This document shows positions 20,749-43,357 of a stretch of DNA of 43,357 nucleotides, in pieces. The notes below the pieces were generated by a model. It searched no databases and had not been told where the DNA came from. It was given only the letters and a program-made list of their open reading frames with translations. Each line of letters begins with the position of its first letter. Position 1 is the first letter of the stretch. The stretch covers positions 1 through 43,357 of the forward strand of contig JBQLZK010000063.1 in assembly GCA_052168235.1 (NCBI GenBank). The letters run 5' to 3'. This DNA is from Thainema sp. Its GTDB lineage: Bacteria; Cyanobacteriota; Cyanobacteriia; Phormidesmidales; Phormidesmidaceae. A program made the translations under genes and the position numbers.

Positions 20749-20943
20749 CTGTCACCTCTTTAATGTCTAGTAGGACATTGCCTAACTATAGCGATATACG
20801 CTCCTTGGCTGTTTTGCAATTGATGAAGGTACATATTGGACGGGAGTCATGCGAGAGGGGATGTTTGAGATGCGGCACTGCAAAGGGAATTTTCTGTAAG
20901 GTGCGATCGCACTTCTACGTTTCAAAAAATAGGTGAGATCGCA

Positions 20944-23601
20944 CTAATTGCTATTGCTTTCATCATTGGAATTTCGTGATTGGCGGGAATCGCCTCGCAG
21001 CAGGGGTAAGCGCTTGTAGGATTCGATCATCAGCGTGAGGAAATTTTCTTGGGTTAAGCCTTCGGGTGGGCTGAGTTGGAAGGCACCAATTACGCCAACA
21101 GAGAGAATGGCCCCGATAATAATCACAGGCACCATGTACCAGGAAACTAAGCGGCTAACCACAACGAGCAAGATGGTAATTGCGAAATAGGACACCAGTG
21201 TAAACGCACCGGATGTATAGAAATTGCGGCGCGGTGGTTCTGAAGTTGGAGCAGGCATAGGCGGAAGTGGTTCCGGCTGATCCATTTGGGAAGCATCTTG
21301 ACGTTGGGCAGCGAGGCGATTCTGACGCACTTGACGCTCTTCGGGTGCTTCAATGCCGTCTAGCAATCGACGAACAGACACTTTTTCGCGCAAGCCAGGG
21401 GGCACAAATTCGGCTTCTCCTAGGGCTTCTAAATCGAGTAGATGTTTATAATCCACCAAAACCTCTGGGCGTTCTGGCAATGGCACCTTTTCTTCGGCTT
21501 CGATGCCGGGAATGGTGCTGTGGATGTAGTAGAACTGATCGCGGATGCTTTCTAGTAGAGAACGGCGACGGGCAGGATTGCCTTTAACCCAAATGAAGAT
21601 GATCTTTTCTTCACGATCCGCTTTGATTAAAGCTTTGTTGCTACTGCGTTCTAAAACAACACCACTACGCCAGTAGGTATATCTAGAAATGAGCTGATTC
21701 ATGCGGACAATGAAGCGAGAGATGACGCTGCTGGGCAAGACGTTATAGTGATATTGAAAGGGTAAAGCATCGCTCCATTCACCCGTTTCCGGTTCTTCTT
21801 TGCTAATTAGGTCGGGAATGAGAAATTTTTGGTCAGCGTATCCTTCAAGAGGAAAGCACAGCTCAAATTTTTTCATCATGTCAAGGATGAACAGGTGCTT
21901 ATCTGGTGGATACGTATTGGCATCAAGCATGTGATCTAGCATTTGCCGATCTAGGATGCCTTTGTGCTCTGTCATCAGGGGATTGTCATTGAGGATGCGA
22001 TATACGCCGTTTGTCACCCATTCGGGATTGAGCACTGCGCTCATTTGTAGACGTGGATCGTCCTGAAAGCTGAGGATCACACCTAGCCGATGTAGCAGTT
22101 TGATCAGCGTCGTTTGAGTGAGCTGATCGGTAATGTTTTCCTTCTGGCACAAATCGCGATATTCGCTGTATTCAATGTAGTCGCGCTGCATGTTTTCAAG
22201 GCAGCGTTTGACATTGAACCAAGACTGAGCCAGCGGATCAAAGACGTGATCGAGTTTGGCGATTTCTTTGCAGATGGTGGTTCGTAACTTTTCAATGCCG
22301 CGTCCATCAGCACAGCAGGTTTCGACAATGGCGACAATGGATGGATACTTGCGTCGCAGCCCCCGCTTGTCAATATCGAGCGGTTGCTGATCAATTTTGT
22401 TGCCTACGACGATGATGGGTGAATCGCTGCCAAAGCTTTGGATTATCTTGAGCCAATATTCCAGTCGGTTTTCGTCCTCACCCAGTCGAGCATCTAATAC
22501 CAAAACATACAAGCTGCGCTTGGTAAGGAAGAACTGATGGGTGGCGTGCATAATCTCTTGCCCACCAAAATCCCAGATATTGAGCTGAATCGTTTGTCCT
22601 TTGGCTTCAATGGGCCATTGCGTGATGTTGATCCCTTCGGTTTTGTTTTCGTGAGGATTAAACTGTTCACTGACTAAACGGCGCACCAGAGAGGTTTTGC
22701 CAACGCTGCCCTGGCCAACCAGCAGCACTTTAGCTTCATTGAGCGGCTGACGCTGCTCGGTGGTTTGCAAACTGAAGTAGTAGTTGAGGATTTCTGCTGG
22801 ATCGGCTGGTCGTTTATCGTCGAACAAAACTTCTAGCCATGTAGCTCCCAAAACTTCCGGTGCAATGAGTAGAGCAGGGTTGTCATGCAAAAATAGTTCT
22901 TCCAATTTTTGGAGCTGAGCGATTTCCGGCGGCAGCGTCGTCAACTGATTTCCGCTGAGGGAGAGTGATCGAAGAGATTGGAGCTGAGCGATTTCCGGCG
23001 GCAGCGTTGTCAGCTGATTTCTGCTGAGGTCGAGTGATTGAAGAGATTGGAGCTGGATAATTTCCGGCGGCAGCGTTGTCAGCTGATTTCCGCTGAGGTC
23101 GAGCAACTGAAGAGACTGGAGCTGAATGATTTCCGGCGGCAGCATTGTCAGCTGATTTCCGCTGAGGTCGAGCTGCTGAAGAGACTGGAGCTGAATAATT
23201 TCCGGCGGCAGCGTTGTCAGCTGATTTCCGCTGAGGGAGAGTGATCGAAGAGATTGGAGCTGAATAATTTCCGGCGGCAGCGTCGTCAACTGATTTCCGT
23301 TGAGGGAGAGTGATTGAAGAGATTGGAGCTGAATGATTTCCGGCGGCAGCGTCGTCAACTGATTTCCGCTGAGGGAGAGTGATCGAAGAGATTGGAGCTG
23401 AATAATTTCCGGCGGCAGCGTCGTCAACTGATTTCTGCTAAGGTCGAGCAACTGAAGAAATTGGAGCTGAGCAATTTCCGGCGGCAGCATCGTCAGCTGA
23501 TTTCCGCTGAGGTCGAGCTTTGTCCGGCGTCCTCTTGCAGCTTGATTAATTAGCTTGCGTAGTTCGTCTTCAGATAATGGTTGGGTCGAATCGATCGCCA
23601 T
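20944..23601 (-). CDS. Roco protein: LRRs + Roc GTPase + COR + two C-terminal TM helices
   Basis: 23-aa LRRs; P-loop GQGSVGKTS, KTEGI, WDFGGQE, HQFFLT and VGNKID; COR motif LNPEWVTNGVY; two hydrophobic helices near the C-terminus. Confidence 0.93.
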   Translation of the reverse strand: MAIDSTQPLSEDELRKLINQAARGRRTKLDLSGNQLTMLPPEIAQLQFLQLLDLSRNQLTTLPPEIIQLQSLRSLSLSGNQLTTLPPEIIQLQSLQSLSLNGNQLTTLPPEIIQLQSLRSLSLSGNQLTTLPPEIIQLQSLQQLDLSGNQLTMLPPEIIQLQSLQLLDLSGNQLTTLPPEIIQLQSLQSLDLSRNQLTTLPPEIAQLQSLRSLSLSGNQLTTLPPEIAQLQKLEELFLHDNPALLIAPEVLGATWLEVLFDDKRPADPAEILNYYFSLQTTEQRQPLNEAKVLLVGQGSVGKTSLVRRLVSEQFNPHENKTEGINITQWPIEAKGQTIQLNIWDFGGQEIMHATHQFFLTKRSLYVLVLDARLGEDENRLEYWLKIIQSFGSDSPIIVVGNKIDQQPLDIDKRGLRRKYPSIVAIVETCCADGRGIEKLRTTICKEIAKLDHVFDPLAQSWFNVKRCLENMQRDYIEYSEYRDLCQKENITDQLTQTTLIKLLHRLGVILSFQDDPRLQMSAVLNPEWVTNGVYRILNDNPLMTEHKGILDRQMLDHMLDANTYPPDKHLFILDMMKKFELCFPLEGYADQKFLIPDLISKEEPETGEWSDALPFQYHYNVLPSSVISRFIVRMNQLISRYTYWRSGVVLERSSNKALIKADREEKIIFIWVKGNPARRRSLLESIRDQFYYIHSTIPGIEAEEKVPLPERPEVLVDYKHLLDLEALGEAEFVPPGLREKVSVRRLLDGIEAPEERQVRQNRLAAQRQDASQMDQPEPLPPMPAPTSEPPRRNFYTSGAFTLVSYFAITILLVVVSRLVSWYMVPVIIIGAILSVGVIGAFQLSPPEGLTQENFLTLMIESYKRLPLLRGDSRQSRNSNDESNSN
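22897..23517 (-). repeat. Nine tandem 69-bp near-identical LRR-coding repeats
   Basis: ATTTCCGGCGGCAGC recurs at a 69-bp period; unit LxLSxNQLTxLPPEIxQLQxLxx. Confidence 0.95.
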
Positions 23602-23702
23602 ACGCTGCTCAAAATCAGATTGCCTATGCTTTATCTCTCCACACTTTAACCAGAGAATTCAGGAACAGCGAATATTCTACTCGAATTGGTATGCTTGCTT
23701 TT

Positions 23703-23746
23703 GTCAATAGGTCTATATTGACTCCACAGGCCAAATCCCGTACTGT
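23703..23746 (+). promoter_or_regulatory. Sigma70-type promoter with a palindromic operator overlapping the -35
   Basis: TTGACT (23718-23723), 17 nt, TACTGT (23741-23746); palindrome GTCAATA-N6-TATTGAC at 23703-23722. Confidence 0.65.
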
Positions 23747-23752
23747 GAAACG

Positions 23753-23978
23753 TTAAGTTGCCAAGACAACATCACCTGCACGGCAACTGGATACCAAAAA
23801 TCTAGTCAGCGCTATCCAGAGTTGGTGACGCAACCCTGGATAGCTAACCCCCGGTTGGTAACGGCAACGCGGAGGCTTGAGGGATCATAACCCAGAGCCA
23901 CCCTGCATTGCACTTCAAATTGCGGGCGTGGCTAGGTTTTTGGCTTTCCTCCCGAAAGTCAAAACCAAAGGAAACACA
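23753..23978 (+). ncRNA. Candidate structured leader RNA (five hairpins)
   Basis: Stems at 23756-23788, 23811-23844, 23848-23875, 23896-23933 and 23938-23964, lying between the promoter and the ATG at 23979. Confidence 0.5.
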
Positions 23979-24263
23979 ATGACATACTTCATCCTCGGTG
24001 CTGCCTCCAACGCAGCGCCACAGCCTGCTGCGACCAATCCCGAAATGTCACAGCGCAACGGTCGCCATCCCCTGCGAATTATTCTGCTCGGCTCCCGCTC
24101 CGACATCATCATCACGATCAAAAACCTGCACCGACGCGGTTTTGCCGAAGCCAACGAATGGAGCCAGCCCATCCCCTGCCCCAGTGCCGGAGATGTCGCC
24201 CGCATCTTGGCCCAGCGGCAACCGGATGATCAAATCAGCATCCTGACTCGCTACCTCAACTAA
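23979..24263 (+). CDS. Small conserved cyanobacterial hypothetical protein (94 aa)
   Basis: AAAGGA precedes the ATG; PLRIILLGS...LHRRGFAEANEWS..IP...ISILTRY resembles an uncharacterised multi-copy cyanobacterial family (from memory). Confidence 0.75.
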   Translation: MTYFILGAASNAAPQPAATNPEMSQRNGRHPLRIILLGSRSDIIITIKNLHRRGFAEANEWSQPIPCPSAGDVARILAQRQPDDQISILTRYLN

Positions 24264-24274
24264 GCGACTAAAGC

Positions 24275-24315
24275 CAAAAGGAAAGAGCCGCGCATTGCAC
24301 GACTCTTTCCTTTTG
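24275..24315. terminator. Bidirectional intrinsic terminator between the small gene and tRNA-Leu
   Basis: CAAAAGGAAAGAG ... CTCTTTCCTTTTG. Confidence 0.75.
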
Positions 24316-24323
24316 AACTTATA

Positions 24324-24405
24324 TGCGGATGAAAGGACTTGAACCTTCACTTCCGAAGAAACTAGAACCTAAATCTAGCGCGTCTACCAATTCCGCCACA
24401 TCCGC
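24324..24405 (-). tRNA. trnL: tRNA-Leu(UAG)
   Basis: GCGGATGTGGCGGAATTGGTAGACGCGCTAGATTTAGGTTCTAG...GGTTCAAGTCCTTTCATCCGCA; long variable arm; anticodon TAG. Confidence 0.97.
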
Positions 24406-42851: not shown

Positions 42852-42992
42852 AACGATGGTGGGGTTGGCTATGAATTCAACAATTCAGGCGTCTAACCTA
42901 TTCGCCGAGTTTCTATCGCAAAGCCGTCGAATCACTCAACTTTTAGATTTGTAGAGCGCTCTCTGCTATCAACTGTGCTATCGTTAGCAGAG

Positions 42993-43170
42993 TATCGGTT
43001 CTGGTGGAAATCAGCCATCAGACGCAAGGGGGAAAGTGCAGTGCGAATCTGCCGCTGTCCCGCAGCTGTAAGCCAATTTTAGATTGTCGATTTTAGATTT
43101 TAGATTGAGTCATTAATCTCCATTCCGAATCCAAAATCCAAAATTGCGTAAGTCAGAATGCCCGCCGATT
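42993..43170 (+). promoter_or_regulatory. Cobalamin riboswitch
   Basis: ATCGGTTCT..AAGGGGGAAAGTGCAGTGCGAATCTGCCGCTGTCCCGCAGCTGTAA..TAAGTCAGAATGCCCGCCGAT (B12-box); the regulated gene lies beyond the window. Confidence 0.88.
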
Positions 43171-43357
43171 TGTAAACCCGTTACATAACCATCTGCGAGG
43201 TACGGATGATGTCTGCTTTAAGTTTTTTACGTTTAATTCGCTTCAGGTATTTGTTATTAAATCCCAGGTTGTAGCATCCTGGCTGATTAACTTATTTCAT
43301 TAAGAACCTATCCGAAAACCGATGTTGTTCGGGAGATGAGTGCGTAAAGTGAAGGTG

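Follow-up and report, generated by a model that had tools for sequence, protein, structure and literature searches.

Results

Layout of the unit

In the window (the whole 43,357-nucleotide stretch of Thainema sp. DNA analysed here), a unit of 560 bases lies between a Roco gene and a tRNA-Leu gene and consists of a sense promoter, a leader of about 225 nt, a ribosome-binding site (RBS) and an open reading frame (ORF). The features at this level are:

20944..23601, minus strand: LRR-Roc-COR (Roco) gene, accessory cargo on the promoter side (Pfam, synteny)
23703..23722, no strand: inverted repeat over the -35, arms 23703-23709 and 23716-23722; left edge of the copy-to-copy homology
23718..23746, plus strand: sense sigma70-type promoter, TTGACT (23718-23723), 17 nt, TACTGT (23741-23746); kept in homologues
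23968-23972, plus strand: RBS, AAGGA; in many homologues enclosed by the P7 stem
23979-24263, plus strand: ORF of 94 aa, with about 25 low-confidence N-terminal residues and a beta-alpha-beta core
24275..24315, no strand: hairpin of the tRNA-Leu locus, outside the repeated unit
24324..24405, minus strand: tRNA-Leu(TAG), neighbour only (tRNA call)

An earlier note on this DNA, made from the sequence of the single copy, had described the palindrome, the promoter with its 17-nt spacer, the RBS and the ORF, and all four are confirmed. TTGAC..TANNNT occurs at the same place upstream of ca. 95 of 100 homologues, a count from a best-site search and hence biased toward the consensus; sense transcription would start at about 23753-23755. 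A promoter and terminator scanner run over the unit listed no terminator and neither this promoter nor the minus-strand promoter described below. The palindrome keeps its 6-8-6 form in 11 of the 12 own-genome copies that have a promoter. Most copies of the sister genome (G001) have a degenerate or unscored version, and inspection of distant family members by eye revealed no such repeat. It is a possible operator limited to this subfamily, and a family-wide operator was rejected. Translation from a TTG at 23877, raised before as an alternative, can be dismissed because homology begins at the ATG at 23979 and the open frame upstream of it varies from 107 to 166 aa among the full-length copies of this genome.

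Copies resemble one another at the nucleotide level from the palindrome through the stop codon and no further. The hairpin at 24275-24315, previously read as the terminator of the unit, also adjoins tRNA-Leu in G001, where no unit sits, and therefore belongs to the tRNA locus; it may also terminate the unit transcript. The picture of a self-contained unit beside tRNA-Leu accordingly had to be given up, since other copies lie at unrelated sites, and the tRNA was rejected as an integration site. Rfam matches in the whole window are confined to two tRNAs and one cobalamin riboswitch (RF00174, 56.5 bits, 42979-43183).

A covarying leader upstream of a small-gene family

The leader comprises the following elements:

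23756..23788, plus strand: P1, 5' hairpin whose length varies and whose base is conserved (6 of 6 pairs doubly changed in set A4)
23794-23808, plus strand: box A', long-range partner of box A and predicted anti-anti-RBS or antiterminator (15-nt complementarity, repeat finder)
23811..23844, plus strand: P3 hairpin, hypervariable loop 23825-23830 (covariation, loop comparison)
23843..23849, plus strand: single-stranded conserved linker between P3 and P4 (leader alignment)
23851..23872, plus strand: P4 hairpin, hypervariable loop 23858-23864 (covariation, loop comparison)
23896..23933, plus strand: P6 hairpin followed by a T-run, possible attenuator terminator (covariation)
23929-23943, plus strand: box A, pairing partner of box A'; shares sequence with P6 (3' arm) and P7 (5' arm)
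23938..23975, plus strand: P7 stem and RBS (fold; in many homologues the stem includes the RBS)

The leader, with the five local stems reported before, folds at -83.2 kcal (z -4.09), and none of 200 shuffles was as stable. We built an RNA model, R1, from 23 leaders and assessed the stems in A4, a set of 100 leaders outside the training set that are the top-scoring matches fitted to the model. In this model-fitted alignment, 92.2% of stem cells are paired and 28 of 31 pairs show double changes; slid controls reach 32-45%, and 0 of 500 shuffles attain the pairing score. A plain MAFFT alignment of the leaders gives 88.5% paired and double changes in 26 of 31 pairs. Hairpins P1, P3, P4 and P6 covary, with G-U pairs common in the stems, and a short stem that closes P3/P4 is conserved without covariation. 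Covarying structure, which the earlier note had proposed to look for upstream of homologues, is thus present, and strongly so in copies that the model had not seen.

A gene of the same small-protein family follows within 240 nt in 96 of the 100 leaders. Among the remaining four, one leader is cut off by the contig edge, another stands before a different gene family, and no family gene shows for two. Rfam (15) returned nothing over the unit at gathering score and only chance-level matches at E up to 10. With covariation, no Rfam family and this consistent gene partner, the earlier proposal of a previously undescribed RNA switch that governs a family of uncharacterised small proteins finds support.

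The mechanism then imagined finds none. Pairing of the 5' segment GTTGCCAA amounts to -7.5 and -8.4 kcal here and to -6.2 and -5.3 kcal in one other copy; in the other nine of 11 parsed copies it is -4.1 kcal or weaker, and it is not conserved. The repeated apex of the hairpins then numbered 2 and 3 does occur in the window copy, but carries no meaning, as the loops differ in every copy. Both features were rejected as a mechanism, being peculiar to this copy. Absent from the earlier note is a 15-nt pairing of 23794-23808 with 23929-23943, that is, of box A' with box A. Among 94 leaders with an assignable start, the median A'/A duplex is -21 kcal versus -7.5 kcal for shuffled sequences, and the duplex beats all 30 shuffles in 88 of the 94. 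Covariation of this helix is modest (85.2% paired versus 82.6% shuffled; 13 double-change pairs versus 9.4 in shuffles, 5/500). Short arms repeated at 23794-23807, 23874-23877, 23896-23899 and 23930-23933 permit two interchangeable four-way-junction folds, between which the leader could switch by branch migration.

A conserved promoter consensus on the opposite strand

The P5 loop contains a conserved minus-strand hexamer that had gone unnoticed:

23884..23889, minus strand: antisense -10 hexamer, TATGAT on the minus strand, in the P5 loop (Y-A-N-N-N-T in 100 of 100 leaders)
23908..23913, minus strand: possible antisense -35-like hexamer, GTGCAA, with an 18-nt spacer (spaced-hexamer search)
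23794..23877, minus strand: putative cis-antisense RNA, about 84 nt long, forming two stem-loops (predicted; fold -38.6 kcal)

In the 100 non-training leaders, the columns of the hexamer read T85/C15, A100, A49/C32/T17, A78, A73 and T100 on the minus strand, which is the profile of a sigma70 -10 element; the R1 training sequences already contained the hexamer. Elsewhere in the leader, the pattern Y-A-N-N-N-T reaches 48% in the next-best minus-strand window and 59% in the best plus-strand window. A T that would provide an A, and hence a purine start, on the minus strand is conserved in 99 of 100 leaders and lies 6-8 nt from the hexamer in 97; in the window copy it is at 23877. An nTGCAA hexamer is found 16-18 nt upstream of the -10 in 70 of 100 leaders and is missing in 18. 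An antisense RNA starting at 23877 would copy P4, P3 and box A'. Its 3' end is uncertain: the A-run of box A' is a U-run on the minus strand and lies near the predicted end, and an A4 run able to end the RNA occurs in only 49 of 100 leaders. The RNA data used, four of the 20 runs listed, are all contigs, from which strand, ends and level are unreadable; related copies appear in three metatranscriptomes, all from one study. Among these contigs, two places where part of the leader seems skipped may be divergent paralogues and were not used as evidence.

Taken together, the sequence points to a separate antisense RNA from the opposite strand and not to a same-strand RNA of the C4/CI type. A same-strand account would treat the minus-strand hexamer as only a conserved loop motif and would have the leader act either through a C4/CI-like processed trans RNA, made of box A' and two hairpins, or by sensing a ligand or protein. 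There is indeed a cloverleaf-like domain whose linker is conserved, and a box on the same strand is complementary to a downstream target; the product might also bind its own leader. However, only on the minus strand does the hexamer fit the -10 profile, and there a start base at a set distance and a -35-like site go with it. Conservation within the leader is lowest in the loops, the opposite of what an aptamer would show; A'/A pairing is predicted to expose the RBS and not to block it; and searches at E up to 10 gave no Rfam match to C4 or another family beyond chance level. We regard this account as quite improbable; cis-antisense control is most probably how the RNA family works.

A predicted folding switch with proposed antisense control

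The elements visible in the sequence—two convergent promoter consensus sites, the covarying hairpins P1, P3, P4 and P6, the A'/A complementarity and the P7 stem—suggest how such control might operate. Folding predictions indicate that the growing transcript pairs A' with A and leaves the RBS exposed (ON), whereas the full-length RNA relaxes to P6 and P7 (OFF), so that the ON state would be transient. The antisense RNA would kiss loops 3 and 4 of the nascent leader and zip over box A'; with A' occupied, P6 and P7 would form at once and block translation and, in many copies, transcription would probably be ended too. Because P6 is followed by a run of at least four T within 12 nt in 66 of 100 leaders, termination may add to the translation block; P6 of the window copy was not called by the terminator scan.

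We modelled the effect of the antisense RNA by blocking its footprint in silico in 94 homologues. The median cost of opening the RBS rose from 7.85 to 11.9 kcal; the RBS became harder to open by more than 1 kcal in 65 of the 94 and easier in 2, with a change below 1 kcal in 27. P7 forms in 93 of 94 leaders with the footprint blocked, compared with 71 of 94 unblocked. As P7 thus already dominates at equilibrium without antisense RNA in those 71, the model needs a kinetic ON state. In growing-transcript folds of the window copy, A' and A are paired at transcript ends 23935-23966, and P6 and P7 have formed at 23985; ON is predicted to be transient because A'/A pairing persists until the RBS region emerges and gives way to P6 and P7 at full length, which would parallel antisense attenuators (PMC2879508). 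In most responding copies of the same genus, blocking A' alone produces a similar rise in opening cost, and blocking the hairpins alone does not. For the window copy, the equilibrium effect is small (4.6 to 5.9 kcal), with none from blocking A' alone.

Copy-specific loops

The 13 copies in the Thainema genome have 13 distinct loop-3 and 12 distinct loop-4 sequences on conserved stems. All 13 loop pairs are distinct, so that copy-specific recognition loops are present among the paralogues, and single loops recur in new pairings in G001. Among 11 copies, only 1 of 110 non-cognate pairs could form at least five base pairs at both loops, and 10 of 110 could form at least six at one loop. Within a copy, the likeness of loop 3 to loop 4 is 0.71 in the window copy versus 0.14-0.57 in the other 12. 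Through this divergence each copy would obey its own antisense RNA, and 13-50 switches could coexist per cell. We consider the folding switch, antisense kissing and cognate-only loops likely as a joint proposition.

Copies and taxonomic range

That the unit is multicopy had been missed. Its own genome (G000) contains 13 full-length ORFs of 79-100% identity, one 5'-truncated ORF and seven distant paralogues, and R1 detects 13 leaders. Of these copies, 11 are intact. Two others, judging by eye and from a presumed pairing of contigs, seem split across contig pairs by IS-like insertions with short target duplications. The first (C145/C4; L066, L059) is split between RBS and gene, at the start codon, and its G001 counterpart is intact; the second (C10/C153; L068, L063) is split inside P1. 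In both, the gene is cut from its promoter or RBS and the antisense part is spared. A decayed copy at about 52400-52500 of contig C42 (L069) retains the promoter and the antisense hexamer region and has lost most of the leader and the gene. Near-identical distant paralogues at about 75350-75900 of C8 and 127420-127950 of C3 share a different leader that R1 does not match.

The protein family occurs in 31 of 41 related genomes and 46 of 121 genomes sampled across the class. R1 matches 44 of 61 family genomes and 33 of the 121 class genomes, from nine families; all 33 also carry the gene family. Leader copies, counted among the candidates scored, number at least 51 in the top genome. A pattern scan of named genomes found at least 117 stretches, of which 80 were tested with the model: all 60 cyanobacterial matches pass and none of the 20 others does. 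By title, the passing genomes include Nodosilinea, Phormidium, Leptolyngbya and Tildeniella; cultured strains named in the scan include Nodosilinea nodulosa PCC 7104 and Phormidium tenue FACHB-1052. The gene occurs in six plasmid records, in one of them upstream of a replication gene; at two plasmid loci with the gene the leader is absent. On plasmid D of Trichormus variabilis (L083), a leaderless member is flanked by a parG-type gene on one side and a replication-related gene on the other. The gene had no match in 50,697 phage records, and none was confirmed in viral contigs, where 4 pattern matches failed the model.

In two more distant families, the same leader precedes two unrelated small-protein families, neither of which has a match in Pfam or PHROGs:

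L332:1773-2141 (G104) and L189 (G086): leader with a 123-aa family (hexamer by eye)
L322:905-1117, L334, L338 and L342 (G085): leader with a 71-72-aa family (hexamer by eye)

G104 has at least 51 RNA matches and 10 matches to the main gene family.

By eye, many copies are directly flanked by REP-like palindromes, either past the stop codon or ahead of the promoter. Together with the sharp ends, the many dispersed copies and presence or absence between sister genomes, such palindromes could mark a non-autonomous mobile repeat, whose folding would serve movement at the DNA level and whose promoter- and RBS-like features would be by-products. The ends of the unit, however, are a promoter and a stop codon, and no terminal repeats or target duplications were seen by eye in the aligned copies. 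Orthologous copies remain in place at 89-95% identity, a level that their flanks share, the ORF core is under strong purifying selection, G-U pairs are common and both promoters are conserved. A mobile repeat is thus a very improbable explanation indeed.

A soluble small protein with a conserved core

The core of the protein (residues 29-94) has a dN/dS of 0.07, a figure taken over 8 copies of equal length, versus 0.54 for the N-terminus. AlphaFold gives a strand-helix-loop-strand (beta-alpha-beta) core and a low-confidence N-terminus. Modelling supports a predicted homodimer, with an ipSAE of 0.55 versus 0.00 for the best control, contacts that agree to at least 89% and pLDDT of at least 72; the mark used for homodimers was reached by 20 of 30 solved homodimers and by 1 of 23 single chains. 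One family member, P0056, is a natural tandem duplication of the domain in a single 163-aa chain, which fits a dimeric unit.

Searches of Pfam, NCBIfam and PHROGs gave no match at curated or meaningful E-values, and the ESM Atlas yielded only unnamed cyanobacterial clusters, with no named match. Fold searches with two models produced no Foldseek hit at E < 0.001 and best VIA Z scores of 4.4 and 4.9; the best matches are generic ferredoxin-like halves (PII, E2, MinE, S10), from which we draw no function. As a soluble protein with no match to a toxin family, the product differs from most type I toxins.

Leaderless members and cargo islets

Some members of the gene family lack the leader. An HTH_3 gene adjoins 14 of the 19 leaderless loci examined, 9 as divergent genes and 5 as DUF7662-HTH fusions upstream; the 14 neighbours were chosen by eye and all 14 proved HTH_3, and the neighbours of the other five loci lay outside the scan. 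At L005, L015, L022, L025 and L030, the DUF7662-HTH_3 fusion stands just upstream of the leaderless member with a promoter-like site between them, an arrangement that is a second repressor-type arrangement. Five leaderless paralogues in the Thainema genome, one of which is an orthologue of the scanned L040, have divergent small ORFs that by eye resemble HTH or RHH repressors.

On the promoter side, the units border variable genes. The islet at about 20760-24283, which holds the Roco gene and the unit, has no orthologous match in G001 and lies at a synteny break; the Roco gene itself has no orthologue there. Five of seven G001 units followed upstream have a counterpart in G000 with a common flank and, towards the promoter, different cargo of about 2-8 kb. 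Genes found upstream of units in the two genomes are, among others, Roco (twice), KAP NTPase, DUF4238, DUF3800, PIN and TerB genes. The two Roco genes stand in opposite orientations, divergent from the window copy (20944-23601) and in the same direction as the C145 leader (L066:364-2577), and no other copy has one upstream, so that the suggested co-regulation with Roco finds no backing. In other genera, accessory genes occur on both sides; by crude ORF calls, 32 of 58 nearest upstream and 20 of 58 nearest downstream ORFs have no Pfam match, and an integrase is nearest upstream in 2 of 58 loci. Uma2, DUF559 and Y1 transposase genes lie downstream of some copies.

Two readings of the protein meet at this point. 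It most resembles an addiction toxin in that a dedicated RNA or protein repressor so often accompanies it, insertions appear to silence some copies and it stands at cargo junctions. Moreover, the HTH_3 neighbours, the IS-split copies that spare the antisense part and the cargo differences tentatively point to a costly product. Toxicity is a serious candidate that falls somewhat short of probable. The leader is not tied to one toxin, as it also precedes the two unrelated gene families.

Alternatively, the same antisense switch could govern a non-toxic regulator of mobile elements, such as an antirepressor, a recombination directionality factor or an early protein, which would be held off by antisense RNA or repressor like P22 ant and would act on the gain, loss or expression of islets. 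The predicted homodimer is consistent with such a role, as are the positions of the units at variable cargo and synteny breaks, the six plasmid records, one with the gene ahead of a replication gene, and the exchange of RNA control for HTH- or RHH-like repressor control, which recalls the immI region of P22 (PMC2629481). Against it, there is no PHROG match, no hit in the 50,697 phage records, none confirmed in viral contigs, and an integrase nearest upstream in just those 2 of 58 loci. We regard a regulator of this kind as the chief competing reading, though an unlikely one, and prefer to treat the protein as a possible toxin.

Discussion

On balance we favour the reading that the unit is an antisense switch with convergent promoters that likely keeps a possibly growth-inhibiting protein off, as type I toxin-antitoxin modules do. 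Its weakest step is the last: that the unrepressed protein would be harmful, and that the module would thereby stabilise the adjoining accessory islet. A more ambitious version is somewhat doubtful. It would make the units a large undescribed family of mutually independent antisense switches, up to about 50 per chromosome, each recognised through two variable loops that are recombined among copies, and gating at least three unrelated small-protein families, the commonest being a new soluble toxin that locks in its cargo islet and whose RNA antitoxin can be traded for a repressor. If true, the phylum's principal type I toxin-antitoxin family would be found here, together with a naturally occurring library of orthogonal riboregulators.

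The RNA family is real, widespread and, as far as the literature and database searches reach, undescribed. For the RNA family, the protein families and the copy numbers, Rfam 15, Pfam, NCBIfam and PHROGs offer no counterpart. A literature search that covered few subscription journals found no description of the element.

Antisense control of small genes is textbook knowledge. Dozens of paralogous switches with unique loops offer a direct test of how RNA-RNA specificity diversifies, and the replacement of RNA regulation by an HTH repressor before one gene family makes a clean evolutionary comparison. The switches may explain why variable accessory islets are retained in filamentous cyanobacteria, and they would be ready-made orthogonal regulators for cyanobacterial engineering.

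Comparison with known systems

The unit would work like toxin-antitoxin systems of type I or a pT181-type leader and cannot be filed under either class, for it shows neither the typical toxin form nor a Rep target. The typical toxin is a short hydrophobic peptide with a transmembrane helix; the present protein has 94 aa and a beta-alpha-beta fold. SymE and RalR are exceptions to the transmembrane form, and Hok/Sok, Ibs/Sib and Ldr/Rdl are other type I systems. C4 of P1 and CI of P4 (RF01695) share with the unit a structured leader, a box complementary to a downstream target and a small gene after it. Both are processed by RNase P out of the transcript on the same strand, and they repress by pairing. 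The unit differs in its minus-strand promoter, in an internal pairing that is predicted to be activating, and in having no Rfam match to C4. Phage, viral and neighbour-gene searches revealed no phage or satellite immunity setting ahead of icd, kil or ant. C4 is listed in PMC2864571.

In antisense attenuators, pairing of the RNA with the leader while this is still being made drives it into a terminator or an RBS-hiding fold (PMC2879508). Those of pT181, pIP501, pAMbeta1 and Shigella RnaG/icsA resemble the unit in convergent promoters and in the leader refolding predicted for it. The pT181/pIP501 type controls a replication initiator, whereas the units are chromosomal, occur in 13-51 copies per genome and precede small unassigned genes; no Rep match was found, and the downstream gene belongs to the small family in 96 of 100 cases. 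The P22 immI region (Sar RNA, Arc, Mnt, ant) likewise places a small gene under an antisense RNA and small repressors (PMC2629481). There, RNA and repressors are layered at one locus; here they would be alternatives in different copies, the protein has no likeness to Ant, and no phage context was found.

Type I systems were described in 2025 as previously unknown in cyanobacteria, with Microcystis MsoT1/MsoA1 as the one, first candidate (PMC12390103). It shares with the unit the phylum and, as proposed here, antisense control of a small gene. By its description there, MsoT1 has two predicted transmembrane helices and comes from one genome, whereas the protein here is soluble, a form from which most type I toxins differ according to the same source (PMC12390103). 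Helicobacter pylori AapA1 is a 30-aa membrane peptide, in contrast to the soluble 94-aa beta-alpha-beta domain studied here; AapA1/IsoA1 is activated by 3' processing and not, as predicted here, by pairing within the leader, and has no sequence or Rfam likeness to the unit. The likeness lies in the design proposed for the unit: there are multiple paralogous loci, the antisense RNA is made across the 5' leader from a promoter of its own, the mRNA fold hides the RBS, and two complementary stem-loops meet in kissing loops that give cognate-only repression (PMC5416894).
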